A stretch of DNA of 47,160 nucleotides, filler included, from Jimgerdemannia flammicorona (GCA_003990765.1; 2 parts of 2 records of this genome joined end to end with filler, not necessarily neighbours in it); one strand, 5' to 3'. Positions 1-38,405 are shown, counted from the whole stretch's first letter. The notes: generated by a model not told the origin, from the sequence alone. Numbers and translations are program-made.

Positions 1-634
1 CTAGTCCCCAGCGGCAAGCTGTCAAAATCCAATCGATTCTAGTCCCCAGACCCCCTGCCCAATGAGTATAGACCCTCCTACTCCCCCAGCACTCCCTTCC
101 AGCATCCAATAGCACACTCAGCCTCTCGACTTCCTCCCATGCCACCAGCCCTCCACTCCTGCCCTCAGCACCTCGTCCTCCATCTGATCTATCCATCAGT
201 ATATCCCTAACCATATTGAAATCACCCCCTAGCACATCCACCCTGGCCTCCGCAAGTAATCCACTCTCCTGTAGTCCCTTCACCCAATCAACCCTCTCAC
301 CCCATACTGCAGGGCAGTAGCAAGAACCAACCATAACTGGCTCCCAGCCTACCCAAATCCACTCTCCCCAGATCAGTCTCTCCCCCCAGCACTGCACATT
401 CTGTATCTCCCCTCTGCCTTTCCTAACCAAAATCCCAACCTTGCCCCTCCAAATCGCTGCACCTCCCCATTCCTTCGTCCATTCTAACCTATCAGAGTCA
501 TCTTTGCACCAGACATCCTGCAAGAGGAAGAGATCGGCCTCCAATCCCTTCAACTAAGTAAAAATGTTCCTACATCGAGAAGCGCCCCGTAACCCATTCA
601 TGTTCAAAGAGAAAATGTTTATTGTACTGTTCAT
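1..634 (-). pseudogene. ORF2 APE endonuclease domain of copy A (partial)
   Basis: Manual translation: MNSTINIFSLNMNGLRG...FT*LKGLEADLFLLQDV...CYCP...GGDFN...RIDWIL. TGG>TAG stop at 554-556. Confidence 0.9.
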
Positions 635-667
635 ATTGATGATATATGTGATGTTGTCAATCTGCCT

Positions 668-2711
668 CTACTGCTCCATGCTCATCTCCTCCTGTGCCCT
701 GTCCAAAATATGTTCTGCAGCCACCTCCTCCTCTTCAGCCCTCTGAGCCTCCAATCCAGCCAGCAGTTCATTCATCTCGCCATCAGCCTTCTCCTCAAAC
801 TCCTCTCGGTATTTGATGCATGCTTCCTGCCAGAGCTATAGTCCATGTCACTTGTTCCAGCAGTATTCAGCCCTTTCTCCAGCAACAACCGCCATCTCCT
901 CCTCCCTCTCCTTATCCACCTCATATCCTTTCTCCTCCAGGTACACCGCAAGAATTTCAGCCTTCAATGCCTTCATCACACCATCCCCCTACAGTATTCC
1001 CACCCAATGCTCATCACTCATCACTCGCAAGTCCACTTCCCCCAACTCTTTCGCTGCCAGGTTATTCATCATCTGGCACATCCAAAGCAAGTTCCCCACC
1101 TCTTTCCCCCCTGGAGTCGCCGGCCTCCCTCCATCCAATATTGTGGTGTCAGCTCCAGCACTTGCAGACTCATCCCATACTTCTGGGATATCCACCAGTT
1201 CCTCCTCGCCATCCGCCTCCACCTGTCCCCCATACACCACCTCTGGAACTCCGAATTGCACCCGCTGGGCCCCTTGCATTGGCACATCTTCCACCACCCT
1301 ATTCCGGGAAGCCAGGCCTGCCTGATGAGAGGGGTAGCTGCCTGATGAGAGGGGTAGGGGTAGGGGAACCCACCCAGTCCTCCTCCCACACCTCCAGTGT
1401 ACCATCCGCATACAGGTCCTTCCCCGCCTTCTTCTTGTCCTCCCCTGCCTCCTTCTTGTCCTTCCCCTCCCCCTCGCTGGCCCAGACACTCGCTCCAGCT
1501 CCCCCTGTGCCCTTCACCTTGCTCGCCTCCCCCAGTGGTCCACTATCTAGCTTGGCCAGCAACTCCTTCTGCCTCTTGTGCCCCTGAGCCCTTTCCCACT
1601 GCTCCTTGGTCACTTGAATCCACTTTCCATCCACCACCTCCAAGTGTGTCGCCTCTTCAAAAGACTCCCAAGCCTTCGCTCGCCTCTCCACAGCCCCCCC
1701 AAGCTCTTTGAGTGCTTCCAGTAAATCCTCCTCCTCTTCCTCACTCCCCTTCACCCTTGTCACCTTACACAGGATCGCTCCCCAGACCATCGCTGAAGGC
1801 CAATCCCTTGTCTTCCCAGTGGCTTCCTTCCCAGTCAGCCGAATCCTCACATCCACATCACCAGTTCTGAGTGAGGTCCCTTCCCAGACCCTGAACCTGA
1901 TATCGACCACCTCGCCATATTCCGCCATGAAATCCTCAACCCTCTTCCTTGTCTCCATTGCTGTCACCATCGGCACTCCCTTCACCAGCAGTTGGACCAC
2001 CCTGGGGTCCCACTTCAAGCACCGCGCCATAGGAACACATACCTCCCCAACCACCAATCCAACCTTCAGTGCCTCCTCCAGTGGTGCCGCCTCCTCAAAA
2101 CCCACCTCCACTCCTTCCAGTCCCTTCAAAAACTTCACAGATGCTGCACCTGCCACCTGCTTGGCGATGAGCCCTAGCACCATTTTTGCCATCACTGCCA
2201 GGCCCCGGATGCATAGTGTGACCGCGAATGCCGAAATCAATTTCTTGAGTAACGGAGCCACCACCAGACCCATTATACCATCTGCCAAGTCTCCTTGCCT
2301 TCTAAGCCTCAGCCACTCAGCCTTGCCATCAGCTGTCACTTCTGGATTTTTTTCCAGATCGACAGTCCCCACACCATCAGCAGTCACACCCCCCCCAGCC
2401 ACTACTCCCGCAGCTCCACTGCCCCCCCTTCCAAGGGCCACACCCCCCGGCACCGTTGCCTTCTCGGTCTCCTTGCCCTTCTTCAGCCAGCCCTCCAGCC
2501 CCAATGCCTGCTGTCTCCCCTTCACCATCTCCGCGAAGCTTGCCCTCCCAGATCCTGATCCTCCAACACCTCCTCCACCCCTTCCATGTCCGCCTGCCAG
2601 CAGGCCCCTCATACCACCTCCCAGACCTGGCCCCCTCCCCACCTGCTGCCAGTCGAAAGCGCTAGGGCCACCCTGCCCAGTACGCACCTCAGGTTGTCTG
2701 TCTGTTGCCAT
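668..2711 (-). pseudogene. ORF1 (gag-like) of copy A, frameshifted
   Basis: Gly-rich N-terminus, RRM-like core (VQLLVKGVP...VWEGTSLRTGDVDVRIRL), acidic C-terminal domain shared with copies B, C, D. Broken by a 20-bp duplication at 1318-1357 and by nonsense codons. Confidence 0.85.
1318..1357. repeat. Exact 20-bp tandem duplication (ctgcctgatgagaggggtag x2)
   Basis: Read directly. Removing one unit restores the ORF1 frame PLIRQAGLASRNRVVEDV. Confidence 0.95.
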
Positions 2712-2792
2712 GTTATTAGTCTCTTTTTGCTGAAAACGATGTCGAAAGTGCCTTCCAAAGGTTGTGTAACCTGAATGGTACTGGAAAGAGAT

Positions 2793-5524
2793 GTTGGGGA
2801 GGCTCTCATCTCCTACACCTTCTTCATCAACAGCACCCAACCTCCACCCTGTAGATCAACAGCCCTTCTCAACCACCAAGCTCACAGACAGTGTAGATGC
2901 TTGGGGAAATCAACAAGGCCCAGGCCTCACCTAAGCACTGGCTCGACAAGGGTATCCCAACTGATCTGGGCCCTTCTACCAGCCCAAATCCAATCCCTAG
3001 CCAGTTTCATCAGCCTCTTCACCACCCAAGTGGGAAAGTCTAAGTGATATGCCACATACCACAGCTTGGGGAACCAGTATATATTCAGAATTGCCACCCT
3101 CCCTGCCAGGGAGATGTGACGACCCCCCCAGCCTTTTAGAGCCTCTCCCCAAATGGCCACCCTCCTCTCACACCATATCTGTGGTAGGACTGATCCATAT
3201 ACAGAGAGGAAGATACCGAGGTACTGCACCACCTCTCCTGTGGGGACAATTGTTCCAATGACATCCCCTCCCACTAGCCCATTCCCCAGCACCATTGTCT
3301 CACACTTATACCAGTTGAGCTTTGCTCCAGAGTGTGCCTCATACCACTCCACTGTTTCCTGAAGAGCCTCTACATCTGCTACTGATCCAAGTCCAACTAC
3401 CATATCATCTGCAAAGGCCCCCACCTTCCACTCCACGTCATATACAGAGAGCCCAGTCACCCTCTTATGGATCCTGTCCATCAAAGGTTCTAAGGAGAGT
3501 GCATAAAGGATAGGGGACAGCGGGTCCCCCTGAGGGACTCCTCTTCCCAAGGGGAATGCCAAACCCCTGTGACTATTACACATCAGCGCTGCTCAACTCC
3601 CTTCCAACAAACTCAACATAGAGGCCCGAAACTGTGGCAGAACACCAATTCTGTCCAGTACCTTACCCAACCAAACCCGCCGAACATGGTCATAGGCCTT
3701 CTCTTGATCCAAAAAAACCAGTCTCCCATCTAGTCCACAGGCCTGGGATCCTTTAATAATACCATGCACCCAGGCAGTTCCATCTCTGATAAGTCTACCA
3801 CCTACAAAGCCCCACTGCTCCTCCCCCAGCACCTGTTGAGCAACCTTCTGTAGTCTTGCAACAATCACCTTAGTCACCAACTTCCGATCCATATCCAGCA
3901 GCATGATTGGCCTCCAGTTCTTCCAATCCTCACGCCGGCCCTTATCTTTGTACAATAGGGCAACCAGCCCTAAGTCCTGCTCACCAACCCACATACCATT
4001 CAGAAGAACATAGTCACAGAGAGCTGCCATCTCTCCCAGCATCCCTGGGACATCCACCATCTTCCTCCAGAAGTCCAATGGTAACCCATCCTCTCCTGGC
4101 ACCATCCCAAGCTTAGTCGCTGCCAGGACACCTTGTATCTCCTCCTCCTGGACAGATAAGGTCAAGTCACCCAGCCTCTCTACCTGTGGCAGCTCCCACT
4201 CTTCCAGTGTGTCACCAATCACCTCTGCATCAGCACCCCCTTCTTCCTCACTCCACAGACCCCACCAATTCTCCTTCAATACTCCCAGGATCTGCTGCAT
4301 GCCATGCACCAACTCTCCCTCAGCATCCAAGATCCCATCCCACCTATGCCGCACCTGCCTAGCTTTGAGGAGCCTAGACAAGTACCTAGTAGGCCGCTCC
4401 CCCTCCTCAAGCCCCTGCCATCTAAGCCTGGCTGCCATATCTCGCATATGAGTCTCCTCCTCCTCTCGCAGCACCTGTTGCAGTTCTACAACCTCCAATT
4501 TCACCCTCACTAACCTCCAATCCTCCACCACATCAGATGCAAGCAAATATGCCTACTCCAACTGCAATCTCCTTAGCCTATTGGAGATATACTGTATTTG
4601 CCTCCTCCTCCTTCTCCCTGCCTCCCTACCAGCTCCTCCCCAATAAACCCTCGCAGCCTCCTTCAATCTCATCCAATGGACACCCACAGATAAACCCTCC
4701 TGCCTCCAAAATGGAATCTTTGCCTGTATATCCTCTACCCATGAGTCCCACAACCCCTTCTCGGCCAGCAGGGAGGAGTTAAGATGCCAATGTCCAGGTC
4801 CATCTCCACTCCCCCCAAACCGCCCCTGCCCAATCAGTCTCCAGTGATTAGACCACGGGCACCACACCACCTCCAAAGTCTTCCAGACATCAGCACCCCA
4901 ACATTCAGCCATCAGAATCCAGTCAATCCTTGTCCCTAAGCCATTCACTCAGTGCATGTAGACCCTGGTGTCACCCCACCATGTTTGGCCCATATCCCCT
5001 AAGGAGCTAAGGTTTTCCACCTCCTCCCATGTATCTAGACTGCCACTCCTCCCACCAGCATTTCTTCCTCCATCAGTCCTATCCAACTGCAAATCTCGAA
5101 CCATGTTAAAATCACCACCAAGAACATTGACCCCTTCCTCCAAGAGAACACCCTCCTCCAGTAGTTCCTTAATCCATGCAATCCTCCCTCCCCTAGCCGC
5201 CGGGCAGTAACATGAGCCCACTCTCACTGATTCCCACCCTGGCTGGTACCATCCACCCCAGACCAATCGATCTCCCCAGTTCTTAATCTCCTCCAAATCT
5301 CCTCTACCCTTCTTTAACAGAATTGCCACCTTTCCAAACCAAGCAGTAGCCCCACCCCATTCTCTAGTCCATTCTACCCGATCATCCTCATCCTCACACC
5401 ATACATCCTGCAGTAAAAAGAGATCAGCCTCCAATCCCTTTAGCCAAGTAAAAATGTTCTTATGCTGCCCAGATCCTCGAAGACCATTCACATTGAGAGA
5501 GAAAATGTTAGTTGTACTGTTCAT
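2793..5524 (-). pseudogene. ORF2 (APE endonuclease + reverse transcriptase) of copy B
   Basis: ORF pieces 4949-5524, 4553-4948, 3593-4546 and 2927-3583 are collinear and separated only by stops. Confidence 0.93.
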
Positions 5525-5555
5525 GAGGAATATTGTTAAAGATTAAACCTGTCCT

Positions 5556-7580
5556 CTACAAATCCACACCCAAGTCCTCCTGTGCCAAATCCAAGCCATG
5601 TTCTGCAGCCAGTTCCTCCTTCTCAGCTCCCTGTGCCTCCAATCCCTCCAGAAGTTCAACCATTGCCCCATCCTCTTTCTCCTCAAAGTCCTCCCTATAC
5701 TCCCTACAGGCCTCCTGCCAGAACTGCAAACCATGGCATTCTGCCCAACAGTAGGCCACCCGCTCACCTGCAACAACCACCAGCTCTGCCTTCCTCACCT
5801 CATCCACCTCATAACTCTCTTCCTCCAGTAGTATCGTAAGAATCTCCATCTGCAGCACCTCCACCACTCCCTCATCTTGCAGAGTCTGTGCCCAGTGCTC
5901 CTCTGGCATGACCCTCAGATCCACTTCCCCCAACACCTCAGCTGCAAGGTTATCCATCACCTTGCTCATCCATAGCAGATTCCCAATCTCCTTCCCTCCA
6001 GGGGTCCCTGGCCGCCCTGCATCCAGCATCATAGTATCTGCACCCACACTGGCATCCTCATTCCACTCCTCTTCTGGGACATCCACCAGCTTGTCCTCAC
6101 CAACAGCCACCACCTGGCCCCCTTTCGCCACATCTGGGACCCCAAAGGTAACCCACTGGGCCCCCTTCATCAGTACATCTTCCACTGCCCCTCTCCACCC
6201 CACCGGGCCCCTCCTGATAAGTGGGGGGGGGGTACTATCTGACTCCTCCTCCCAGACCTCGAAAGTACCATCTGCATAGGGATCCCTGCCCAGTACCTTC
6301 GCAGCCCATTCTTCTGTCACCACTGCCTCCTTTCCGCCTTCACTAGCCCATACACTGGCTTTGACGCCTCCAGACACTTCAGCCCCATCAACCTTCCTCT
6401 TCTTCCCTCCTGTCATACTTGCCAAGAGCTCCCTCTGCCTCAAGCGCCCCTGGGCCTGCTCCTACTGCCTCTTGTCAGTGTGGATATGCTTTCCCTCCAC
6501 AATCTCCAAGTGTGTCAACTCCTCATAGAGCTTCCAGGCCTTTGCCTGCCATTCAACCGCACCACTCATCTCTTCCAATGCCTCCAACAAATCCTCCTCC
6601 TCCTTCTCACTCCCCTTCACCCTCAACATCTTACAAATAAAGGCCCCCCACATCATCACTGAGGGCCAGTCACCAGCCTTCCCTGTGGCCTCCCTCTGCC
6701 AGCCAAATCCTGACATCAATATTGCCAGTCCTGATCGTTGTCCCCTCCCACACCTGGAAGCCAATATCCACCACATCTCCATACTCCACCATCACCTTCT
6801 CTACCCTCCTCCTCGTCTCCTCCTTCATCACTGTGGGCACCCCCTTCACCAGCAGCTGCACCACCCTGGGGTCCCACCTCAAACAGCGTACCATGGGGAC
6901 CACCACCTCTCCAACTACCACTCCCACCCTCAGTGCCTCTGCCAGTGGGCCCACCTCCTCAAAGCCCACCTCAACTCCCTCCAGACCCTTCAGGAATTTC
7001 ACTGAAGCTGCCCCAGCCACCTGCTTCGAGATAAGCCCCAAGACCATCCTCGCTGTCACTCCTAAGCCTTGGAAGCATAGAGTCACCACAAACTCCGAGA
7101 TCGACTTCTTGAGTAATGGTGCCACCGCCAGCCCCATAACACCATCGGCCAGGTCCCCCTTCTGCATCGGGAACCCCTACCCCACCCTGCCATCAGCCAT
7201 CACATCTCTTTTTTTTTCCTGATCCCCCATCACACTCCCATCAACATCACACCCCCAGCCACAGCACCACCAGCCCCTATGCTCACTGCTCCCCCCTGAG
7301 GGCCACTCCCCCTCCTGACACTAGCCTTGCCCTTCCCCTCAGCAGTGCCAACCCTTGTTCCAGTAGGCCATCCACCCGCCTTCACCTTGTCAGCAAAGCT
7401 GGAGGGACCAGACCTTCCTCCAGATCCCCCAGACACCAGTCCACCTCCAGCGCTTTCTCCCACCTTTGACCCTCCAAAGGCCCCCATCTCCAGGCCATAC
7501 CCACTCCCCACCTTCTGCCAGCCAAAAGCCCCAGCTCCCCCTGACCCAGCACACTCATCAGAACTCTTGCTCAATGACAT
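5556..7580 (-). pseudogene. ORF1 of copy B
   Basis: Pieces 7230-7580, 6670-7167, 6462-6782 and 5556-6443 align with ORF1 of A, C and D. Confidence 0.88.
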
Positions 7581-7663
7581 CTTAATAGTACCTTTTCTCC
7601 TAGTTGTGTCGAAAACCATTGCTTGAAGTTTTTGTGTAATGCGAATTGTACAGGAGAAAGGTG

Positions 7664-8134
7664 ACCATCAGCAGTCCCATCTAGATTTTTTTCCAGATCA
7701 CCCGTCACACCCCCATCAGCAGTCCCTGCCCCAGCTGCTACCCCCCCAGCTCCACCCCTATGGCCCTCCAGAGAGGTACCCCCAAGAGGTTGCTGCCTGG
7801 TAGCCTTCATAGGTACCTTCTCCCCTCTCAGCCAGCTCTCCAGTCCAGCTCCCTGCTGACCCCCCTTCACCTTCTCCACAAAGCTCACCCTGCCAGACTC
7901 TTGTCCTCCAGCTCCACCCCCTCCTCCACTGCAGCCTCCCACCAGCAGGCCCCTCATACTTCCCCCCAAGCTGGGGCCTCTCCCCACTTGCTGCCATTCA
8001 AATGCTCCAGGGCCACCCTGCCTAGTATGCACCTCCAGATGCTCATTGGTCACCATAATTCTAGTAGCTTTTCTCCAGAAACTGTGTCGAAAGTATTGCC
8101 AAAAGATTGTGTAACCTGAATGTTGCCAGAAGCC
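7664..8134 (-). mobile_element. 5' portion of non-LTR copy A2 (5' UTR + ~130 codons of ORF1), interrupted by copy B
   Basis: ATG 8056 MVTNEHLEV...AFEWQQVGRG...DLEKNLDGTADG matches the ORF1 N-terminus of copy A. Its 5' UTR (cattcaggttacacaa) resembles that of A. Confidence 0.88.
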
Positions 8135-11100
8135 TTTATTCTACAGCTGATGCTTCCACTCAGGTCCACCAGGGAAAGCAAATCCCCTGAGAACCCTTTT
8201 TGGAGAGAATCTCATCTCCCACACCTTTTGCATCAATGGTACCCATCCCTCTCCCCTTAGTTCCACAGTCTGCTTCAACCACCAAACTCTTAGACAGTAC
8301 AGCCTCTTAGGAAAGTCCACTCATCTTAGCTCCCCTCAAACTACTGATATTGAAAGGGTATTCCAACTGATCTGGGACTGCCTCCCAGCCTAAATCTAAT
8401 CCCTAGTCAGCTTCATCAGTCTCTTCACCACCCAAGCTGGAAAGTCCAAGTGATAGGCAATATACCACAGCTTAGGGAATCAGTAGACATTTAGAATTGT
8501 TACTCAGCCTGCCAGAGAGATGTAGCAACCTCCCCAACCTTGAAATGCTTTTCCCCAGATAGCCACCCTCCTCTCCCACTATACCTGCAGCAACACTGAT
8601 CCATATACCAAAAGGAAGATGCTCAGATACCTCACTGTCTCTCTTGCTAGGACAATTGATCTAATGACATCCCCTCCCACTAATCCATTTTCCAACACCA
8701 TTGTCTCACACTTATGCCAGTTCAGTTTTGCTCCAGAGTGTATCTCATACCATTCTACCATCTCCTTAAGAGCCTCAATATCTGCCACTGATCTAAGTCT
8801 AACCACCATGTCATCTGCAAAGGCCCCAACCTTCCACACTATACTATAAATAGTGAGCCCTGCCACCTTCTGCCAAATTCTATCTATTAAAGATTCTAAT
8901 AAAATGGCATATAGAATAGTAGACTGTGGATCTCCCTGAGGAACTCTACTCTACAAGGGAAATGCCATACCCCAGTGACCATTACACATCAGTGCTGCCC
9001 TACTACCCTCTAACAGATTCAACATAGAAGCTCAAAATAGCAGGGGAACTCCTATTTTGTCCAGCATATTGTCCAGCCACACCTGCTGAACATGGTCATA
9101 GGCCTTCTCCTGGTCCAAAAAGACCAGTCTCCCATCCAATCCACTAGCCCTTGCCCCTTCAATAATGCCATAGACCCAGGCCATCCCATCTCTGATAAGT
9201 CTGCCTCTAACAAAGCCCTACTGCTCCTCACCCAACACCTGTTGAGCAACTCTCTATAATCTCGCAATAATCACCTTAGTCACCATCTTCCTGTCCATAT
9301 GCAGAAGTATGATCAGCCTCTAGTTCTTCTAATCCTCCCTCCTCCCCTTATCTTTATACAACAGGGCCACCAGCCCTAGGTCCTGCCCTTCTACTCACTG
9401 ACTCCTCAGAAGAACAAAATCACAGAGAGCTGCCATCTCTCCTAACACTCTAGGGACCCCCACTATCTTCTTCCGAAAGTCTCAAGGTAGACCATCCTCT
9501 CCTGGTACCATACCAAGCTTAGTTGCCATAAGGACTCTCTGGATCTCCTCCTCTTGGACTTGAAGGATCAAATCCCCCAGGCCCTCCACTTGTGGTGGCT
9601 CCCAGTTCTCCAGAGTGTCTCCAATTGTCACTGCATTGGTACCCCCTTTCTCATCACTCTACAGACCCCTCCACTACTCCATCAGCAACCTTGAGATCTG
9701 TTGTATACCATGTACCATTTCCCCCTTGGCATCAAGGACTCCATCTCACTGATGTTGCACCCTTCTCACCAGAGGAGCCTTGACAAGTACCTAGTTGGCC
9801 TCTCCCCCTCCTTAAGTTCCTACTACCTCAACCTAGCTATCATTCCTTTCACTCACATCTCCTCCTCCTCTCTCAATACCTATTGCAACTCCATTACTTC
9901 TAGTCTAGCTCACACTAGTCTCCAATCATCTACCTTATCAGAGTTTATCAAATCAGCCCATTCCATCTGCAATCTAACCAACTATTTAAACCACACCTTA
10001 CTCTATTCCATCTTCAACTCCTAGCATCCCTACCAACTTCTCTCCAGTAAACCCTCACAGCCTCTTTCAACTTCATCTACTAGACTTCCACTTGCAAGCC
10101 CTCATACATCCAGCTTATGATCTTCACCTGAATGTCCTGCACTCAAAGGTCCCACAACATCTTCTCAGCTAGTAGAGAGGAGTTAAGGTGTCAATGACCA
10201 GGTCCATCTCCACTCTCCCCAAACTGCCCCTGCCCTAACAGTCCCCAATAGTCTGACCATGGGCACCACTCCACCTCCAGAGTCCTCCAAACATCCAGGC
10301 TCCAGCATTTGGCTGTCAGTATCCAGTCAATCCTTAGACTGAGGTCATTCACCCAATGCATGTAAATCCTCTTTTCTCCCCACTGTGTTCTGCCCATATT
10401 CCATAAGGAGCTAAGGTTCTCTACCTCCTTCCATGTATTCAGACTGTCACTCCTTCCACCAGCACTCCTCTCTCTATCAGTTATATCTAACTAAAGATTC
10501 TTCATCATATTGATGTCACCTTTCAGAACATCCATCTCATCCTCCAAGAATGTGCCCTCCTCCAGAAGACCCTTAAACCATGTAATCCACTCACTCCTAG
10601 TAGCTCAGCATTAGCAAGAGCAAACTCTCACTGGCTCTCACCCAGGTTAACACTATTTTCTCTATACCAAATGGTCTCCCCAACTTCTGATTCTACCTAA
10701 ATCCTCTTTATCCCTCTATACCAAAATTCTCACTTTACCAATCCAAGCTGTAGCTCCTCTCCATTCTCTAGTCCACTCCACTTGATCTATATCATCCTTA
10801 TAACATACATCCTGTAGCAGAAAGAGATCAGCCACCAATATCTTAAGCCAAGTGAAAATGTACTTCTGCTGCCCAGATCTCTGTAACTCATTTATATTCA
10901 GAGAAAAAATGTTAGTTATACTGTTCATTGGGAATAATTTTTAGAAGTTGGATCTTGCACATTTTCTACAAATCCACATCCCTCCTCTCTTGTGCCATAT
11001 CCAAGTTATATTCAGCAGCCAATCCCTTCTCTTCAGCCTCTTTTGCCTTCAATCCCACCAGAAGTTCAGCCATCTCCCCATCCTTCATTTCTTCAAAGTC

Positions 11101-13059
11101 CTCATAATACTCCAGACAGACCTCCTGCCAGAGTTTAAGACCATGATGCTCTGCCCAACAGAAGGTGGCCTGCTCACCAGCATCAACTACCAGCTTGGCC
11201 TCCCCCTTCTTATCAACCTCATACCCCTCCTCCTCCAGAAGAATTGTAAGCACCTCCACCTTCAGTGCCTCCACTACCCCATCATCATGTAGGATCTGTG
11301 CCCAATGCTCCTTGGTCATCACTCTCAGGTCTACTTCTCCCAACTCTTCAGCTGCAAAGTGGTTCATCATCTGGCACATCCAGAGTAGGTTTCCCACCTT
11401 CTTCCCTCCTGGCATTACTGGCCTCCTGGCATCCAGCATTGTGGTATTGGCCCCTACACTTGCAGGCTCATCCCACCCCTCCTCAGGGATATCCACCAGC
11501 TCATCCTCAAAAACTGCCATCACCTGTCCCCCTTTCACCATATCAGGAACTCCAAAGTGTACTTGCTGGGCACCATACATCAGCACATCCTCTGCTGCCT
11601 TACTCCTCTCAGCTGGACCCCATCTGACAAGAGGGCAAGTGTCATCCAATACTTCTTCCCAGACTTTGAATGTACCATCAGTATAAGGGTCATTGCACAG
11701 CATCTTCCTGGCCCAATCCACGCCCTTCTCTCCATTCTCTCCTCTCTTACTAGTCCAGACACTCACTTTTACACCTCCAGACTCCTCATCTCCATAAGTA
11801 TTCTTCTTTGCCCTTCCTTCTATGCTCACCAACAACTCTCTCTATCTCTTACATCCTTGAGCCCTCTCTCACTGCCTCTTGTCAGTGCAAATATATTTCC
11901 CATCCACAATTTCCAAATGCATAAACTCTATATATATCTTTCAGGCCTTTGCCCTCTGCTCTACTGCCTTGCTCATCTCCTCCAGAACCTCCAATAGATC
12001 CTCCTCCTCCTCCTCACTCTCTTTACCCTTGATACCTTACAGATGAAGGCCCCCCACAACATAACCAAAGACCAGTTGCTTGTCTTCTCTATGGCCTCTC
12101 TCCCTGCCCGTCGTCAACATTACCAGTCCTGAAAGTGGTCCCCTCTCACATCTGGAATCCAATATTGACCACATTATCATACTCTACCATCACCTCCTCC
12201 ACCCTCCTCCTAGTCTCAAACTTCATCACCATAGATACCCCCTTTGCCAGTAACTGAATCACTCTGGGGTCCCACCTCAAACACTGCACCATAGAGACCA
12301 CCACCTCTCCTACTACCACTCTAGTCTTCAAGCTTCCTCCAGTAGACCTGCCTCCTCAAAACGCACCTCAACCCCCTCCAATTTCTTCAGAAACTTCCCT
12401 GAGGCAGCTCCAGCCACTTGCTCCAAGATAATCCCCAGAACTATCCTTGCCATTACTGCCAAGCCCCAGAAGTACAAGATTGCAGCAAACTCCAAGATCA
12501 ACTTCTTGAGTAATAGTACCACTGCCAGCCCCATCACACTATCAGCCAGGTCTCCTTTCCTCTTTGGTCTCATCTGCTTGATTTCACCATTAACAGTCAC
12601 ATCTGGATTTTATTCCAGATTCCCAGTCATGCCACTATCAGCAGTCTCCTACTCCCAGGAGATGCTCCACCAGCTCTTCCACCCACTAGTTGATGAGCTG
12701 CATCTCCTACTTCTCCTTCTCTCTACTTTCCCTTTCCCTCCATCTGCCTGCTATGTAATCCAACAGACTATCTGCTAGTCTTCAGTATATCAGCAAAGCT
12801 CCTTCTTCCACCCTCCTGCTCCTCCCCCAGTGCTGCTACTACTATCTGAACTACCCTGTCTACTTGGACTACTGAAAGACCCCATCTCCAATCCATACCC
12901 TCATCCAACATATTGCCAGTCAAAGGCTCCAGGTCTACCCAACCTAGTACATATGTTGGCATGCTTATTGGTTACCATGATCTTAGTACCTTGCTCCAAT
13001 AAATACTCTGAAAGTGTATTGTAAAAGTGTGTGTAACATGAGTGGTAACTGAGAAAGGC
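8135..13059 (-). mobile_element. L1/Tx1-like non-LTR retrotransposon copy C (older, heavily decayed; interrupted in late ORF2 by A2)
   Basis: ORF1 ATG 12978 to TAG 10966. ORF2 ATG 10928 (MNSITNIFSLN...LLQDV), RIDWIL, WKVGAFADD at ~8830. Many stops and frameshifts. Confidence 0.92.
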
Positions 13060-13094
13060 TTGACTAACGATAACATTAAGAAGACTATGATAGC
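13060..13094 (-). mobile_element. 35-bp sliver of Ty3/gypsy integrase between copies C and D
   Basis: The minus strand reads CYHSLLNVIVS, continuing FCYHGLP from ~19000 into the HGLPxxIVSD integrase motif. Confidence 0.8.
13078..13094 (+). repeat. Left target-site duplication of copy D
   Basis: aagaagactatgatagc versus aggaagaccatgatagc at 18996-19012; 15/17 identical and both differences are transitions. Confidence 0.85.
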
Positions 13095-13184
13095 CAGATT
13101 TCCACCTTTCTCTGGTACAATTTATGTTATACCAACTTTAAGCAACAGTTTTTCAATACAACTCAGAGGAAAGGTATTATAACA

Positions 13185-15211
13185 ATATCATTGAGCAAGA
13201 GTTCTGCTGGGTGTGCTGGGTCAGGTAGACCTGGGGCTTTCAGCTAGCAGCATGTAGGGAGGGGTTATGGCCTGGAGATGGGGGCCTTTGGAGGGTCAAA
13301 GGGTGGCGGGGGCTCAGGAGGTGGACTGGTATCTGTTAGCCATGGGGAGAGACCTGGACTTACAAGCTTTGCAGATAAGGTGAAGGAGAGTGGGTGGCCA
13401 GCTAGGATTAGGGCTGGTGCTGTAGTAGAGAAGGGCAAGGTGAGCCTAGAGAGGGGGGGAGTTACTCAGGGGGGGAATGCAAGCATAGGTGATGGAGGTG
13501 TAGTGGCTGGAGATGGAACTGCTGATGGCAGTATGACAGGTAATCAGGAAAAAAAAAGAGATGTGATGGCTGATGGCGGTGTGGGGCAGGGGTTCCTGAT
13601 GCAGAAGGGGGACCTGGCTGATGGTGTGACAGGGCTGGCAGTAGCACTGTTACTCAGGAAGTCAATCTCAGAGTTTGTGGTGATACTGTACTTTCGAGGC
13701 TTGGCAGTGACAGTGAGGATGGTCTTGGGGCTTATCTCAAAGCAGGTGGCTGGGGCTATCTTGGTGAAGTTCCTGAAGGGCCTAGAGGGAGTCGAGGTAG
13801 GCTTTGAGGAGGCAGGCCCACTGGAAGAGATGCTGAAGTCTGGAGTGGTGGTTGGTGAGGTGGTAGTCCCCATGATATACTGCCTGAGGTGGGACCCCAG
13901 GGTGGTGCAGCTGCTGGTGAAGGGGGTGCCTACTGTGACAAAGGAGGAGACTAGGAGAAGAGTGGAGGAGGTGATGGCAGAGTATGGCAATGTGGTGGAT
14001 ATCAGTTTCCAGGTGTGGGAGGGGACCTCTATTAGGACTGGTGATATGGAGGTGAGAATTAGACTGGCAGGAAGGGAGGCCACAGGGAAGATGAGCGACT
14101 GGCCCTCAGTGTTGATGTGGGGGGCTTTTGTTTGTAAGGTGTCAAGGGTGCAAGGGAATGAAGAGGAGGAAGATGACTTGTTGGAGGCACTGGAAGAGTT
14201 GAGTGGTGCTGTTGAGAGGAGGGCAAAGGCCTGGAAGTTGTCTGAGGAGACAACACATCTGGAGATTATTGATGGGAAGAGGATTTGAACTGACAAGGGG
14301 CAGTGGGAGCGGGCCCCAGGGCACAAGTAGCAGAGGGAGTTGTTGGCAAGTATGAGCAGTGGGACTAAGAAGAAGGCAGATGGGGCTGAGGTGTCTGGGG
14401 GCATCGAAGCCAGTGTCTGGGCCAGTAAAGGAGAAGGGGAGGTGGAGGCAGACAAGGAAGGAGCTGGGAAGATGCTGAGCAAGGACCCCTATACTGATGG
14501 CACATTCAAGGTCTGGGAGCAGAAATTGGATGCCACCCCCCCCCCTCTTATCAGGAGGGGCCCAGCTGTGAAGAGAGGGATGACAGAGGATGTACTGATG
14601 CAGGGGGCCCAGCAAGTGCACTTTGGGGTCCCTAATGTGGTGAAAGGGGGCCAGGTGGTGGCAGTTGGCAAGGACAAGCTGATGGATATCTCTGAGGAGG
14701 AGTGGGATGAGGCTGCCAGGTAGGAGCTGATACTTCAATGTTGGATGCAGGGCAGCTAGGGACCCCAGGAGGGAAGGAGGTGGGGAACTTATTGTGGATG
14801 AGCAAGGTGATGGATAACCTTGTAGCAGAGGCATTGGGAGAGGTGGACCTGAGGGTAATGCCTGAGGAGCATTGGGCACAGATTCTGCATAGAGATGGTG
14901 TGGTAGAGGTGCTTAAGGTGGAGATTCTTGTGATCTTCCTGGAGGAGGAGGGGTATGAGGTTGATGAGGGGAGGAAGGCGGAGCTGGTGGTGGTTGCTGG
15001 TGAGTGGGTGGCCTACTGTTGGGCAGAGCATCATAGTTTGCAGCTCTGGCAGGAGGCCTGTCTGAAGTATTGTGAGGACTTTGAGAAGTGAGAAGATGGG
15101 GTAATGGTAGAACTTCTGGGTGGGTTGGAGGCACAGGAAGCTGGAGAAAGGGAACTAGCTGCTGAGCATGACTTGGACTTGGTGCAGGAGGAGCCGAATG
15201 CAGACTTGTAG
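13185..15211 (+). pseudogene. ORF1 of copy D
   Basis: Pieces 13278-14288, 14340-14723 and 14738-15091 are closely similar to ORF1 of copy B. Confidence 0.88.
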
Positions 15212-15240
15212 AGGATAGGATCACTATATATCATTTTCTT

Positions 15241-18200
15241 ATGAACAGTACAACCAACATTTTCTCTTTGAATGTGAATGGGCTAAGGGGATCTGGGTGG
15301 TGTAAGAATATTTTTACTTGGCTCAAGGGATTAGAGGCTGATCTCTTTTTACTACAGGATGTTCAGTGTGAGGATGAGGATAATCAGGTGGAGTGGACTA
15401 GGGAATGGGGTGGGGCTACTGCTTGGTTTAGAAAAGTGGCAATTCTGGTGAGGAAGGGTAGAGGAGACTTGGGGGGAATTAGGAGCTGGGGTGATCGCTT
15501 GGTCTGGGGAGATTGGCATCAGCCAGGGTGGGAGTCAGTGAAGGTTGGCTCTTGCTACTGCCCTGCAGTTAGGGGTGAGAGGACTGTGTAGATTAAGGAG
15601 CTGCTAGAGGAGGGTATTCTCTTTGAGAAAGGGGTTGATGTTCTCAGGGGGGACTTTAATATGGTTTGGGATCAGCATCTAGACAGAACTGATGGAGAGA
15701 GGAGTATAGGGGGGAGAAGTGGAGGTTTGGATGCATGGGAGGAGGTGGAGAAGTTGAGCTCCTTAGTGGATATGGGCAGAACATGGTGGGGCAACACCAG
15801 GGTCTACACACATTGGGTGAATGGCTTGGATATGAGGATTGACTGGATTCTGATGGCAGAGTGCTGGGGTTCCAATATTTGGAAGACATTGGAGGTGGAG
15901 TGGTGCCCATGGTCTGATTACTAGGGACTGTTGGGGTAGGGGCAGTTTGGGAGGAGTGGAGATGGACCTGGACATTGGCACCTTAACTCCTCCCTGCTGG
16001 CTGAGAGGTTGTGGGACTTATGGGTGGAGGACATTCAGGCCAAGGTTGCTATCTGGTGGCATGAGAGTTTGTCTGTGGGTGTCCGTTGGATGAGATTGAA
16101 AGAGGCTGTAAGGGTCTAATGGGGAGGGGCTGATAGAGAAGCTTTGAGATGGAGGAGAAAGTGTACAGAGTGTACTTCTAGCAGGCTGAGGAGACTGCAA
16201 ATGGATTGGACAGATTTGCTTACTTCTGATGAGGTAGAGGATTGGAGGATAGAGTGGGTAAAATTGGAGATAGTGGAACTGCAACAGGTATTGAGAGAAG
16301 AGGAGGAGACTTATATGTGAGGTATGGCTGCTAGGCTGTGGTGGCAGGGGCTTGAGGAGGGTGAGCAGCCTACTAGATACTTATCAAGACTCCTCAAAGC
16401 TTGGAGGGTATGACATCAGTGGGATGGGGTCCTAGATGTCAATGGGGACATGGTGCATGGCACACAACAAATCGTAGTGGTTTTGAAGGAGAGATGGCAG
16501 GGTTTGTAGAGTGAGGGAGAAGGGGGTGCTGATAAGGCGATGATTGCAGATACACTAGAGGAGTGGGGCCGCTGCAAGTAGCTGGACTGAGTAACTTGAT
16601 CTTACCAGTATGGGGAGAGGAGATCCCAAGTGTCCTTGTGGCAACCAAACTTGAAACAGTGCCAGGGGAGGATGGGTTACCATGGGACTTCTGGAAGAAG
16701 ATGGTAAAGGTCCCTGGAGTTTTGGGTGAGATGGCTGCTCTCTGTGACCATGTTCTTCAGAGTGGAGGGTGGGTTGGAGAGCAGGACCTCAGGCTGGTGG
16801 CCTTATTGTACAAAGACAAAGAGAGGAGGGAAGACTGGAAGAACTAGAGACCAATCATGCTTCCGGATATGGACAGGAAGATGGTGACTAAGGTGATTGT
16901 CACAAGGCTGCAGAAAGTTGCCCAATAGGTGCTGGGGGAGGAGCAGTGGGGCTTTGTTGGGGGCAGACTTATAAGGGATGAGACTGCATGGGTGCATGGT
17001 GTCATTGAAGGGGCCTGGGCTTGTGGACTGGATGGAAGATTGGTCTTTTTGGATAAGGAGAAGGCCTACAACTATGTATGATGGGTTTGGCTGAGCAAGA
17101 TGTTAGATCCAATTGGTGTTCCACCAAGATTTCAGGCTTCTATGTTGAATCTGCTAGAGAGCAGTTGGGTAGTGCTGATGTATAATGGACACCAAGGTCT
17201 AGCATTTTCCTTGGGTAGAGGAGTTCCTCAGGGGGACCCTCTATCCCCTATTCTCTATGCCCTTTCATTAGAGCCGTTGATGGATAGGATTCACCAGAAG
17301 GTGGCAGGGCTCTCTATATATGGTATAGTGTGGAAGGTGGGGGCCTTTGCTGATGATATAGTGGTTGGACTTGGGTCTGTGGCAGATGTCAAGGCACTTA
17401 AGGGGACAGTGGAATGGTATGAGGCTCACTCTGGGGCAAAGCTCAACTGGCATAAGTATGAGACAATGGTGCTAGGGAATAGGCTAGTGGGTGGGGACGT
17501 TATTGGAACAATTGTCCCTACTGGTGAGGTGGTGCAGTATCTAGGCATCTTCCTTTCTGTATATGGTTCTGTCTTGCCACAAGTGTGGTAGGAGAGCAGG
17601 GTGACCATGTGGGGGGAGGCTCTTCAAGGTTGGGGAGGCTGCCATATCTCTCTGGCAGGGCAGGTGTCAATTCTGAATGTATACTGGTTCTCCAGCTGTG
17701 GTACGTGGCCTATCACCTAGACTTCCCAGCTTGGGTGGTGAAGAGGATGATGAAGGTGGCTAGAGATTGGATTTGGGCAGGGAGGAGGTCCCAGATCAGT
17801 TGGGACACTCTTGCAACACCAGTGGTCAGGGGAGGTCTTGGCCTTGTGGATTTCCCTAAGAGGTTGCACTGCTTGCAAGCCTGGTGGTTGAAGAGAGCTG
17901 CTGAACTGCAGGGAGGGAGTTGGGTACCTCTGCTGCAGAAGGTATGGGAGATGAGAATCTCCCCTAGAGGGTTCTCAGGAGATCTGCTCTCATTGGTAGG
18001 GCTGAATGGAAATCAGCAGCTGAGGTTTAAGGGCTTTTGGTGGGGAGTGATAGATGGAGCACACCAAATTGACCTGCACTGGCAGGGCAATGAGGGGGAG
18101 GTGATGTGGGGGCCTGATATGTGGCGATGGGATAGACTGCTCCTGGGGGATGCTCCACTGGCTATATTTGATATTGGGGATAGAGTGGAGTGTCAGCAGG

Positions 18201-18895
18201 GTTTTGGCCAGGATCTTTGGCCAAGTGGCTGGCAGGTGGCAGGGATTGGTGAGGAGTGGGACTGGGCAGGTATCTGGTCTTGGAGTGCTGAGGTACAGAG
18301 GTGGCTTTCTCCCAAGTTCTGGGTGGTATGGTGGTGAATGCTGTGGAGAAATGTCATGTTGAATTTCTGCACTAGGCATCTGGTGGACAGTGGCCATTTC
18401 GATTGTAAGGAATGTTGCAATGTAGGGTAAGCTGGGGGTCTTGTGCAGACACTGGAACATTGGCTGGGAGAGTGTGATGTTTTGGGGGACTTTTGGGTAG
18501 AAATAGGGAATAGACTGGGTGTAGAGCAAAGGCCAGTGGGTGAGGGGGGCTGCTGGGAGGACTTGAGGTCACAGCTAGTGAGTGGGGTGGGTGATAGTTG
18601 GCTCACTGTAGGGTGGGTGTTAGCAGTGTGGGTGGGACTAGTGGGCCATTGGCTTTTTGTATTTGAGGAGGGGAGGTAGATGGGGCTGCAGGAGAAGGTA
18701 TTAAGGTGGGAGGAACTGTTGGGGGATCTGCTGACTGGATGGTAGGTGGGTTGGAGTCCCCAGGGGGGGTGACATTGCAGTTTGGTGGCAAAGATCTGTG
18801 AGCAGAGTGGTGGGAGGGTGGAAATTGTATTAGACAAAGTGGTCTTTCAACAGAAAGGGGTAGAGGGGGGGGGGCCCCCTAGGGGGATCAGATAG
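15241..18895 (+). pseudogene. ORF2 of copy D: APE endonuclease, RT, C-terminal zf-RVT-like CCHC; no RNase H recognised
   Basis: APE motifs; GVPQGDPLSP and FADD (~17220-17360); CKEC...TLEHWLGEC (~18400-18480); ends GGPPRGIR*. Confidence 0.92.
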
Positions 18896-18995
18896 GGGGT
18901 GAGATCACTGTATTTATATGGGATATATGGGAATAATAAAGGAAGGAAGTCCAAGTAACTATAAAAAAAAATAAAAAACAAAAAATAAAAATTAA

Positions 18996-19012
18996 AGGAA
19001 GACCATGATAGC
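18996..19012 (+). repeat. Right target-site duplication of copy D
   Basis: aggaagaccatgatagc immediately after the A-tail; matches 13078-13094. Confidence 0.85.
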
Positions 19013-23266: not shown

Positions 23267-23534
23267 AGGGGGACCATCTATCCCCTATTCTCTATGCCCT
23301 ATCACTGGAGCCGTTGATGGATAGAATTCGCCGGAGGATAGCAGGGCTCTCTATCTATGGTATAGTGTGGAAGGTGGGGGCCTTTGCTGATGATATGGTG
23401 GTTGGACTTGGGTCTGTGGTGGATGTAGGGGAACTTAGGGAGATGGTGGAATGGTACGAGGCTCATTCCGGGGCGAAACTCAACTGGCATAAGTGTGAGA
23501 CAATGGTGCTAGGGAATGGGTTGGTGGGAGGGGA
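23267..23534 (+). mobile_element. 5'-truncated non-LTR fragment E (RT core) joined to gypsy gag; runs into the gap
   Basis: GDHLSPILYALSLEPLMDRI...WKVGAFADDMVV...GNGLVG. Confidence 0.88.
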
Positions 23535-23634
23535 NNNNNNNNNNNNNNNNNNNNNNNNNNNNNNNNNNNNNNNNNNNNTTAATTAATTAANNNNNNNNNN
23601 NNNNNNNNNNNNNNNNNNNNNNNNNNNNNNNNNN
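23535..23634. other. Assembly gap with artificial six-frame-stop linker (44 N + TTAATTAATTAA + 44 N)
   Basis: Symmetric 100-nt spacer; TTAATTAATTAA gives stops in all six frames. Confidence 0.95.
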
Positions 23635-24980
23635 CCCCCCCCTACCCCTTCTCAACAAAAAACCACTTTATCAAAAACCCAATGACATCCCCTCCCACTA
23701 GCCCATTCTCCAGCACTATTGTCTCACACTTATGCCAGTTGAGCTTCGCTCCAGAGTGTGCCTCATACCACTCCACTGTTTCCCGAAGAGCCTCTACATC
23801 TGCTACAGATCCAAGTCCAACTACCATGTCATCTGCAAAGGCCCCCACCTTCCATTCCACACTATATACCGAGAGCCCAGTCACCCTCTTATGGATCCTG
23901 TCCATCAAAAGTTCCAAGGAGAGTGTATAAAGGATAGGGGACAGTGGGTCCCCCTGAGGGACTCCTCTCCCCAAGGGGAATGCCAAACCCCTGTGACCAT
24001 TACACATCAGCACCGCTCGACTCCCTTCCAACAAACTCAACATAGAGGCTCGAAACTGTGGCGGAACACCAATCCTGTCCAATACCTTGCCCAACCAAAC
24101 CCACTGAACATGGTTGTAGGCCTTCTCTTGATCCAAAAAGACCAGTCTCCCATCCAGTCCACAGGCCTGGGCTCCTTCAATAATGCCATGTACCCAGGCA
24201 GTGCCATCTCTTATAAGTCTACTACCTACAAAGCCCGGTTGCTCCTCCCCCAGCACCTGTTGAGCAACCTTCTGTAGCCTTGCAACAATCACCTTAGTCA
24301 CCAACTTCCGATCCATATCCAGCAGCATGATTGGCCTCCAGTTCTTCCAATTCTCACACCGGCCCTTATCTTTGTACAATAGGGCAACCAGCTCTAAGTC
24401 CTGCTCACCAACCCATATGCCATTTAGAAGAACATGGTCACAGAGGGCCGCCATCTCACCCAGCATCCCTGGGACTTCCACCATCTTCTTCCAGAAGTCC
24501 CACAGTAACCCATCCTCCCCTGGTGCTGTCCCAAGCTTAGTCGCTGCCAGGATACCTTGTATCTCCTCCTCCTAGACAGGTAAGGTCAAGTCACCCAGAC
24601 CCTCTATCTGTGGTGGCTCTCACTTTTCCAGCGTATCACCAATCGCCTCTGCATCAGCACCCCCTTCTTCCTTACTCCACAGACCCTGCCAATTCTCCTT
24701 CAACACTCCCAGGATCTGCTGCGTGCCATGCACCAGCTCTCCCTTAGCATCCAAGATCCCGTCCCACCTATGCCTCACCCACCTGGCTTTGAGGAGCCTA
24801 GACAAGTACCTAGTAGGCCGCTCCCCCTCCTCAAGCCCCTGCCATCTAAGCCTGGCTGCCATACCTCTCATATGAATCTCCTCCTCCTCTCTCAACACCT
24901 GTTGCAGTTCTACAACCTCCAATTTCACCCTCACTAGCCTCCAATCCTCCACCTCATCAGACGCAAGCAACTCTGTCCAC
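23635..24980 (-). mobile_element. Non-LTR fragment F: 5'-truncated RT region very similar to copy B, with an internal deletion joining it to the ORF2 3' end
   Basis: Open RT frame 23642-24484. Homology stops at ~24980. Bases 23635-23678 match the ORF2 end of D (~18825-18870). Confidence 0.9.
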
Positions 24981-38334: not shown

Positions 38335-38405
38335 CAGAAAAAAAAAACAAAAAAACAAAAAAACAAAAAAACAAAAAAACAAAAAAACAAAAAAACAAAA
38401 AAAAA
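38335..38405. repeat. (CAAAAAAA)n A-rich microsatellite
   Basis: About 7 units of C+A7, ~70 nt upstream of ATG 38478. Confidence 0.9.

Follow-up and report, generated by a model that had tools for sequence, protein, structure and literature searches.

The window, by which we mean the whole stretch of DNA analysed, comprises 47,160 nt of Jimgerdemannia flammicorona (GCA_003990765.1), in two parts joined with filler, and contains the 5′ ends of five copies of one LINE, of which four are full (A, B, C and D) and one is 5′-cut (A2). The family, seen here in fungal DNA, is lineage-specific, orphan, strongly G-rich and L1-like (APE plus RT). It has the domain order of an APE-type LINE: Exo_endo_phos (E 7.8e-09) is followed by RVT_1 (E 1e-09 to 4e-13) in copy B, RVT_1 is also found in copy D, and a separate ORF1 lies upstream of ORF2. 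Among solved structures the best relatives are chains of human LINE-1 ORF2p (E ~1e-12), and the nearest full-length ORF2 relative, which carries RVT_1, Exo_endo_phos and zf-RVT, is 39% identical. ORF1 has no match below E 0.42 among PDB sequences, and its AlphaFold2 single-sequence model (mean pLDDT 40.1) is unusable. The coordinates of the copies and their leaders are collected in the table; the window's left edge cuts off the remainder of copy A.

Table. LINE copies in the window and their leaders; arm sequences are given with the direction in which they are read.
Feature	Position	Strand	5′ arm	3′ arm	Remarks
Copy A ORF1	1299..2711	-			intact, 470 aa, without Pfam family
Copy A leader	2712..2791	-	2785-2791; TCTCTTT (2791->2785)	2720-2726; AAAGAGA (2726->2720)	ORF1 ATG 2711-2709
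Copy B whole element	2796..7662	-			~4867 nt; broken ORFs; APE (Exo_endo_phos) and RT (RVT_1) pieces
Copy B leader	7581..7662	-	7652-7662; ACCTTTCTCCT (7662->7652)	7590-7601; AGGAGAAAAGGT (7601->7590)	ORF1 ATG 7580-7578
Copy A2 leader	8057..8125	-		CTGGAGAAAAGCT	5′-truncated; ATG 8056-8054
Copy C whole element	8121..13059	-			most decayed copy; GC ~0.47; many stops
Copy C leader	12979..13059	-	13051-13059; GCCTTTCTC (13059->13051)	12988-12996; GAGCAAGGT (12996->12988)	ORF1 ATG 12978-12976
Copy D leader	13104..13185	+	13104-13114(15)	13164-13175	
Copy D whole element	13104..18040	+			homology to copy C 3′ tail reaches ~18040

The 3′ UTR of copy B is interrupted at 2796 by the 5′ end of copy A, copy A2 terminates at 7663-7664, the insertion point of copy B, and copies C and D stand head-to-head with 44 nt between their 5′ ends. 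Because the copies differ in decay, with ORF1 intact in A and a GC of 0.47 and many stops in C, a template-jump origin of the head-to-tail row is less likely than nested insertion; copy A, being the only one with an intact ORF1, is probably the youngest. No A-run is present at either of the two visible 3′ junctions (B/A at 2796 and C/A2 at 8121), but since the tail of B is cut by A, only copy C is informative as to a poly(A) or simple-repeat 3′ tail; it has AATAAA 14 nt before the A2 junction and no poly(A) at that end. A fixed CAACA at two A-type junctions was considered and set aside, as it is explained by flank homology to AAAAA of copy C and ACCA of copy A, and there are no telomere-repeat junctions in the window. 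The preliminary description held that a stem in the leader could account for the nested copies' precise 5′ ends. Nothing computed here supports this: the five copies comprise four of full length and a cut one, and successive nested insertions of full-length copies explain the layout equally well.

The leaders (A 80, B 82, C 81 and D 82 nt) align end to end with a mean column identity of 69%. In each full copy the first bases of the element can pair with bases near the end of the leader, and the pairings first described prove exact, letter for letter, in all four stems, the 3′ arm ending 8-12 nt before the ORF1 ATG. The stem of copy A consists of 7 Watson-Crick bp in a register shifted by +2 relative to B and D; that of B is a helix of 11-12 bp interrupted by a single bulged A. 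Copies B, C and D share exactly the 5′ arm CCTTTCTC despite three unrelated flanks, so that both arms are internal to the element. The weak pairing noted earlier for A2 was borne out, because this copy lacks the 5′ arm: its homology to A begins at TTCAGG (8120), 11-16 nt short, and 8121-8125 form an ambiguous junction with the 3′ tail of C. Upstream ATGs are present in B (in frame, 7617-7619), C (13037-13039) and D (13124-13126), and the start codon position of D (13186-13188) is now ATA.

How far these pairings exceed chance differs between copies. Duplexes between the first 12 nt and the last 30 nt of each leader have energies of -6.9 (A), -14.6 (B), -9.6 (C) and -14.3 (D) kcal/mol. The fraction of dinucleotide shuffles matching these values is 0.044 for A, 0.0005 for B, 0.011 for C and 0 of 2000 for D, and that of letter shuffles within the arms, which keep the pyrimidine and purine runs, is 0.065, 0.0024, 0.053 and 0.0032 respectively; among same-geometry windows across the whole 47,160 nt the fractions are 0.21 (A), 0.004 (B), 0.064 (C) and 0.005 (D). 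The shuffle and window controls therefore place B and D above chance and leave A and C marginal against the shuffles and unremarkable among the windows, so that the worry that composition-matched shuffles might pair equally well is answered for the first two copies and not for the others. Copy A has the weakest stem though it is the sole copy with an intact ORF1. When leaders are folded in isolation, A, B and D have the closing stem in their MFE folds, and RNAalifold on the four full copies returns it as the sole consensus structure (12 pairs, -6.6 kcal/mol). Whole-leader folding z-scores are weak (-0.73, -1.89, -0.35 and -1.60), and leader conservation is not above that of the ORFs (pairwise identity 0.69-0.80 versus 0.71-0.85). 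The cognate assignment of arms is the best among the 24 permutations; for the arms of A and C, other copies' 3′ arms are equal or better partners than their own.

Longer contexts are less favourable. In 250- and 400-nt contexts the mean stem pair probability is 0.00-0.04 in all four copies, and the G-rich ORF1 supplies equal or better partners for the 5′ arm: within the first 2.7 kb the 3′ arm ranks 8th as 5′-arm partner in B and 4th in D, and is not among the 12 best in A and C. Antisense arms pair about as well as sense arms, so arm energies leave undecided both the strand and whether action would be as RNA or as DNA.

The comparison of B with D indicates covariation. Of the 22 paired positions 4 differ, all within two pairs, and pairing is kept in both copies through double compensatory changes (pair 10-64, C-G/U-A; pair 11-63, U-A/G-C). 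In simulations with four substitutions, leaving no broken pair has p 0.012-0.05, and doing so with two double changes p 0.0015-0.0035. Across B, D and C, pair 10 takes three different Watson-Crick forms, and the inner pairs of copy C covary as well (A-U, G.U, U-A). Moreover, a purine in the 'pyrimidine' arm is matched by a pyrimidine in the 'purine' arm in D (G11-C63) and in C (A10-U64), which would not be predicted from a mere coincidence of one run with another. In the covariance-model register, standard pairs number 12/12 in D, 11/12 in C, 11/12 in B and 7/12 in A; copy C, placed in the B/D register, has three wobbles and one U.C mismatch, and G.U pairs total three in C and one each in B and D. 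In a five-row alignment 86% of cells pair, compared to 77.7 ± 3.5% in shuffles, 12 of 500 of which reach 86%, and sliding the partner by 1-3 columns lowers the paired cells to 42-65%. Both sides change in 4 of 11 pairs, although the RNAalifold covariation term is only -0.19, with four informative and related sequences. Because the helix of copy A is shifted by two columns, it does not constitute column covariation; the covarying stem first proposed for the four full copies is thus retained for B versus D and for the inner pairs of C, and not for A.

Motifs in the loop had been described as shared by most copies. This holds for TTACAC, which is in four of the five copies (all but D; A 2764-2769, B 7634-7639, C 13031-13036), and less so for TTTCGACA, found in three of five (A, A2 and B; A 2740-2747, B 7607-7614). 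Identity of the latter with a Pol III B-box was rejected, since no more than a TTCGA core is present and the transcript measures 4.9 kb. A second small hairpin (GTA/TAC), also proposed earlier, can be dropped: it has 3-4 bp, its registers differ between copies, and RNAalifold does not predict it.

We also looked for further copies. Within the window, the covariance model R1 recovers the five leaders already known and no other, with 14.7 bits (E 0.53) for the highest-scoring match after them. ORF1 has no match in viral_contigs; ORF1 alignments gave 596 pattern matches in metagenome_contigs and 111 in genome_contigs, and RT alignments 285 in metagenome_contigs, with none confirmed in any of the three. 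A 19-nt loop pattern common to A and A2 is absent from viral_contigs and occurs twice in bacterial MAGs; the leader model gives these two 15.8 and 22.5 bits, compared to 75-91 for true copies, so they are chance matches. The family is present in four sequencing runs, in 4276, 487, 540 and 287 contigs at 80% or more.

A self-cleaving ribozyme (HDV-like, twister, hatchet or hammerhead) could cut the RNA of the element free of read-through transcripts, as is the case for R2, RTE, L1Tc and Perere-3, and 5′-end processing was among the functions suggested for the leader. Rfam 15 gives no match at gathering score in the 47,160 bases, and at E<=10 the three leader regions yield 13 weak matches, none to any self-cleaving class; twister, twister-sister, hatchet, pistol and hammerhead are without a match in both searches (the window at gathering score, the leader regions at E<=10). 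Sequence models catch HDV-like ribozymes poorly, which makes the Rfam result weak by itself. The HDV-like fold is a nested double pseudoknot in which P1 runs from nt 1 to a strand in the mid-section, with P3/L3 just upstream of that strand, P1.1 and P4, P2 closing to the 3′ end, and the catalytic C in J4/2. A relaxed descriptor of our own design finds no match in A and C and never uses the observed 3′ arm as P1 partner; in B and D its P1 partners lie only inside ORF1 (+122 to +188) and include two G.U pairs, and shuffles match at a similar rate (14-21 of 200). The Rfam and descriptor searches thus agree with the earlier statement that neither a hammerhead nor a clear HDV core is present. What speaks for cleavage is that the size and position of the module recall Pr77/L1TcRz, which spans 77 nt at the very start of its element (PMC3185411), and that read-through transcription would be common among nested copies. 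Against it stand the lack of any ribozyme among the Rfam matches at either threshold, a descriptor that avoids the stem in all copies, the two element-internal arms, a first base that is not a fixed G (A in B and D, G in C, T in A), and a single continuous 11-12-bp helix, which is not the HDV topology. We consider self-cleavage barely credible.

Three other accounts do without a functional RNA helix. The most serious, which we regard as somewhat unlikely, is that no structure is selected: the 5′ pyrimidine run and the purine- or A-rich run before the ATG would each be kept separately, whether for start-site context, translation context or a purine-rich sense strand, with complementarity a by-product and the B-D compensation luck. 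It draws on the marginal standing of A and C in every control and their want of cognate preference, on the many equal or better purine partners in ORF1 and the loss of the stem in longer contexts, and on the fact that the stem was picked post hoc, by eye; moreover, two events rather than four would suffice, given that the changed positions lie next to each other in each arm. It does not sit easily with B and D surpassing arm-internal shuffles (0.0024 and 0.0032), with all four B-D stem differences being compensatory, with the 5′-arm purines of D and C being faced by 3′-arm pyrimidines, or with the fall in pairing from 86% to 42-65% when the partner is slid.

In the other two, complementarity is real and serves another end or none. 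A LINE with an 80-nt leader must hold its promoter there or in early ORF1, and the arms could be inverted-repeat promoter parts or factor-binding sites acting as double-stranded DNA, an idea favoured by the similar sense and antisense arm energies. The Pr77 of L1Tc acts as a promoter of 77 nt and includes a downstream core element (PMC4748587, PMC3383444). Nonetheless, half-sites 50 bp apart changing together are unexpected for host-factor sites, and the G.U pairs (three in C, one each in B and D) would be mismatches in a DNA inverted repeat, leaving this account quite unlikely. Adjacent double changes in both arms, as seen between B and D, are the signature of quasipalindrome mutagenesis, so the helix might form and yet be maintained by template switching during reverse transcription or replication, one arm being copied from the other, and not by function. 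We think this very unlikely: a 50-nt loop is long for template switches, and correction would have to be inefficient, with C retaining a U.C mismatch and three wobbles and A in another register.

The closing stem is plausible, as a reasonable reading for the B/D subfamily and a tolerable one for C, and the designation 'candidate structured element' therefore stands. All that follows on function is inference, as are the formation of the helix in vivo and its action as RNA and not as DNA. The reading we prefer, tentatively and at a little below an even chance, is that the leader folds as a non-catalytic, locally formed 5′ panhandle laid over an internal promoter. The LINE RNA would begin with a pyrimidine run (ACCUUUCUC...), and a complementary purine run would close the leader 8-12 nt before the ORF1 AUG, the panhandle forming locally during transcription of the leader, ahead of synthesis of the G-rich ORF1. 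Such a helix would take in the first 7-12 nt of the LINE RNA, beside the start codon, and its most likely effect would be to protect the full-length template against 5′ to 3′ decay at its 5′ end, or to throttle or position ORF1 initiation, or both. As DNA, the same 80 bp would also have to carry the internal promoter, and a promoter role or protein binding may fall to the loop motifs TTACAC (+23/+29) and TTTCGACA (+45/+56). A more specific and unlikely version makes the leader a non-catalytic counterpart of Pr77 that serves in DNA as the internal promoter and in RNA as a 5′ panhandle, which would hide the 5′ end, bring the cap to ~10 nt from the ORF1 AUG, bypass the 50-nt loop, protect the template 5′ end and raise the share of full-length insertions (4/5 here).

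Several known LINEs invite comparison. The Drosophila elements I factor, jockey, F and Doc have internal Pol II promoters in short leaders that start at element +1, with conserved motifs at about +25 to +30 directing initiation at the first base. The leader described here is similarly short and has downstream motifs, but TTACAC and TTTCGACA are not known promoter elements, and we know of no closing RNA helix described for the Drosophila leaders. Pr77/L1TcRz of Trypanosoma cruzi L1Tc resembles our leader in size (~77-82 nt for the two) and in opening an APE-type LINE, with the coding region following at once and the module common to copies; a double role is proposed for it, in DNA as an internal promoter with a downstream core element, and in RNA as well (PMC3383444, PMC3185411, PMC4748587). 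Its RNA is an active HDV-like ribozyme, whereas our leader shows neither an HDV-like fold nor an Rfam match, but a single, plain closing stem; the two come from unrelated hosts and LINE lineages, and are likened by layout and not by sequence comparison. In the Perere-3 twister variant of Schistosoma mansoni a terminal helix (P1) also closes a non-LTR 5′ module, but there P1 takes its 5′ strand from the target-site duplication and cleavage of the RNA occurs (PMC8501958), whereas here both arms lie inside the element and there is no twister match. The HDV-like 5′ modules of R2 provide a further example in which a non-LTR template starts with a structured RNA; an R2 protein uses templates with a stable 5′ fold better, which the authors read as protection from 5′ degradation (PMC11331408), by analogy the function we propose for the leader. 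R2, however, is a restriction-like-endonuclease element, rDNA-specific, co-transcribed with rRNA and self-cleaved, while our element is of the APE type, has no visible site specificity and shows no catalytic core. Our literature search listed no report of a LINE leader closed by a stem that is not part of a ribozyme. The known ways in which LINEs keep or mark an intact 5′ end are ribozymes (R2, RTE, L1Tc, Perere-3) or long promoters (mammalian L1). The present evidence comes from four related sequences of dead copies in an orphan family; if the reading is true, a plain closing helix in an 80-nt leader would represent a third, minimal and ribozyme-free solution to the LINE 5′-end problem.

The leader of this orphan L1-like LINE family, the 80–82 nt upstream of ORF1, begins with bases (the 5′ arm) that can pair with bases just before the ORF1 start (the 3′ arm). 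The strings and positions that the preliminary description gave for this closing stem are all correct, as is its remark that A2, a 5′-cut relative of copy A, pairs weakly: homology of A2 to A starts at TTCAGG, 11–16 nt into the leader, so there is no 5′ arm. The motifs it saw in most copies are likewise there, TTACAC in four of the five leaders and TTTCGACA in three, and around TTACAC copies A and A2 are identical at 18 of 19 positions, the single difference being C versus T. Its second small hairpin does not hold up, being 3–4 bp long, out of register among copies and missing from the consensus fold. Three leaders contain upstream ATGs: that of B shares the reading frame of ORF1, and those of C and D open short uORFs from nt 21–23; because A and A2 have none, these ATGs are probably products of decay.

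The closing stem appears in the MFE fold of the isolated leaders of A, B and D and is absent from that of C, and whole-leader folding z-scores for the four full leaders are weak (-0.73, -1.89, -0.35 and -1.60). Tested as the duplex of the first 12 nt with the last 30 nt of each leader, the stem has energies of -6.9 (A), -14.6 (B), -9.6 (C) and -14.3 kcal/mol (D). The fractions of 2000 dinucleotide shuffles that are as stable are 0.044, 0.0005, 0.011 and 0, respectively. When letters are shuffled within each arm, preserving the pyrimidine and purine runs (a control that the preliminary description had itself proposed), the stem energy is reached in 0.065, 0.0024, 0.053 and 0.0032, and among same-geometry windows across the 47-kb window in 0.21, 0.004, 0.064 and 0.005. 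The stem therefore stands out in B and D but, taken alone, not in A or C; the concern that composition-matched shuffles would pair equally well is answered for B and D, which exceed them, but A and C are marginal.

A MAFFT alignment of the five leaders has standard pairs in 86% of the stem's cells, as against 77.7 ± 3.5% in column shuffles (86% was attained in 12 of 500), and pairing falls to 42–65% when the partner is slid by 1–3 columns. For the four full copies RNAalifold predicts the closing helix alone (12 pairs, -6.6 kcal/mol), with a covariation term of only -0.19. In the register of R1, a covariance model made from the leaders, standard pairs number 12 of 12 in D, 11 of 12 in C (with three wobbles and one U.C), 11 of 12 in B (12 with a bulged A placed otherwise) and 7 of 12 in A, whose perfect 7-bp helix lies in a register displaced by two. 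Of the 22 paired positions, four differ between B and D, as two double changes, C-G to U-A and U-A to G-C; when four random substitutions are simulated every pair stays intact in 0.012–0.05, and does so with two double changes in 0.0015–0.0035. Pair 10 is C-G in B, U-A in D and A-U in C. Cross-pairing of arms ranks the cognate assignment first of 24 permutations, a preference due to B and D only (1.6–3.3 kcal/mol); for the 5′ arms of A and C, foreign 3′ arms are equal or better partners than their own. Covariation of the kind originally described is thus seen between B and D and in the inner pairs of C, but not in A.

Positions of the LINE copies, their leaders and junctions, and other features of the window
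Feature	Position	Strand	Size, alignment or remark
Copy D	13104-18100	+	blastn query
Copy B	7662-2796		D 1-4861; 79.9% (blastn)
Copy C	12655-8126		D 406-4937; 74.2% (blastn)
Copy A	2408-58		D 394-2714; 69.6% (blastn); runs off window
Leader of A	starts 2791	-	80 nt
Leader of B	starts 7662	-	82 nt; start ambiguous by 1-2 nt against interrupted A2 sequence
Leader of C	starts 13059	-	81 nt
Leader of D	starts 13104	+	82 nt; start codon position now ATA
A2	8120 to 7663	-	5′ fragment of A-like copy
ORF1 of A	1299-2711	-	470 aa, intact
Upstream ATG, B	7617-7619
Upstream ATG, C	13037-13039
Upstream ATG, D	13124-13126
A in 3′ UTR of B	2791/2796		about 75 nt short of the end as seen in C and D
B in ORF1 of A2	7662/7663		about 460 nt from A2 start
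A2 at 3′ end of C	about 8120/8121
D head-to-head with C	13060-13103		44 nt apart
3′ junction regions	8121-8200; 2796-2830	-
3′ tail of C (…GGCTTCTGG)	8121-8135	-
CTGATGAG	7554-7561	-	just past ORF1 start of B
Antisense stop-free frame	1927-2733	+	268 aa
RT fragment	23267-23534	+	88% to D
RT fragment	23679-24979	-	92.6% to B
N runs	23535-23578; 23591-23634
Ankyrin-repeat ORF	25205-26110	+
F-box-like ORF	40222-41556	-
A-rich arrays	38341-38403; 40131-40169

A search of the window with copy D shows that positions 1-18040 are a cluster of copies of a single non-LTR retrotransposon family. The ORF2 pieces carry Exo_endo_phos followed by RVT_1 (Pfam), and among solved structures the chains of human LINE-1 ORF2p come closest to them (E about 1e-12); among 5.8 billion proteins searched the nearest full-length ORF2 relatives are only 38–41% identical, one of them having RVT_1, Exo_endo_phos and zf-RVT. 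The ORF1 protein has no Pfam family, three homologues of 55–62% identity (among 5.8 billion proteins) and no match below E 0.42 in a PDB sequence search, and by these comparisons is an orphan; a single-sequence AlphaFold2 model (pLDDT 40) was unusable. Parts of the family occur as contigs in four sequencing runs, one of which, from soil, has most of it, and no leader copies beyond the window's five were obtained for a larger sample. Across positions 1-20000 GC skew ranges from -0.36 to -0.49 where the copies are minus-sense and from +0.38 to +0.47 in D, a strand asymmetry strong enough that the sense RNA is very G-rich; the ORF1 N-terminus is Gly-rich, and GGGG runs are many. Long stop-free antisense frames are probably by-products of this asymmetry.

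Of the five copies, four are full-length. Nested insertions in one orientation are the simplest reading of the row C-A2-B-A, and the ages of the copies are consistent with it: A has an intact ORF1, B is broken, and C is the most decayed (GC about 0.47). Such rising decay fits successive nested insertions better than one template-jump event. The suggestion that the stem accounts for the precise 5′ ends found no support, there being no computed link between full length and stem. Poly(A) or simple-repeat tails are absent at both visible 3′ junctions, and C has AATAAA 14 nt ahead of the A2 junction. C and D have in common about 75 nt of 3′ tail, which B lacks because A interrupts it. The tail of C is similar to the family's 5′ arm, and the covariance model pairs it with the 3′ arm of A2 (9 of 9 aligned positions standard, with a 3-nt gap); this likeness may reflect microhomology used at the 5′ junction of A2, or chance.

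The blastn search with copy D also finds RT fragments at 23267-24979; they lie in opposite orientations, and the N runs between them are an assembly gap within an inverted LINE pair. Outside the LINE cluster there are an ankyrin-repeat ORF, an F-box-like ORF and two A-rich arrays of heptamer or octamer units, (AAAAAAAC)n and (AAAAAAC)n, which could be tails of other retroposons.

We tentatively interpret the closing stem as a genuine 5′ panhandle of the LINE RNA, one without catalytic activity that forms locally and overlies the internal promoter. Only somewhat less likely is that the RNA, being purine-rich, starts with pyrimidines and has a purine-rich stretch ahead of the ATG, and that the stem is their by-product; the arm-internal shuffles keep both runs, and B and D exceed them. 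Several results speak against a dominant stem. Folding of 250 or 400 nt gives it a mean pair probability of 0.00–0.04 in all copies, the 5′ pyrimidine run pairing instead with G-rich ORF1 stretches. When every 16-nt window in the first 2.7 kb is ranked as partner of the 5′ arm, the leader's own 3′ arm comes eighth in B and fourth in D, and in A and C it is not among the best 12. Given these better ORF1 partners, the closing helix could prevail only kinetically, formed before ORF1 transcription. Also against a dominant structure, the leader is conserved no more than the coding parts, and the sense and antisense arms are of about equal stability.

A promoter feature at the DNA level seems improbable, though the similar stability of sense and antisense arms speaks for it. 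More doubtful still is a templated correction of the arms without function, for which the B/D double changes speak. Least probable of all is a ribozyme. The preliminary description saw no hammerhead or clear HDV core, and our searches agree: Rfam gives no match at gathering score in the whole window, and at E<=10 the three leader regions have 8, 3 and 2 weak matches, among which no self-cleaving family appears. A relaxed descriptor of the HDV-like architecture has no match in A and C. It matches B and D only with P1 partners in ORF1 and never with the 3′ arm of the stem, and it does so about as often as in shuffles (14–21 of 200). The hammerhead core heptamer plus G (CTGATGAG) in B was rejected as chance, D reading CTGCTGGG instead and hammerhead models giving no match.

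The likeliest roles of the panhandle would be 5′-end protection, control of ORF1 initiation, or both, with protection modelled by analogy on the R2 5′ modules (PMC11331408). In layout the nearest known analogue is Pr77/L1TcRz of L1Tc, a 77-nt promoter and HDV-like ribozyme (PMC3383444); the LINE leader module has the same size and place without the fold of Pr77. In the Perere-3 twister variant (PMC8501958) the target-site duplication supplies the 5′ strand of P1, whereas both arms of the leader described here are internal to the element.
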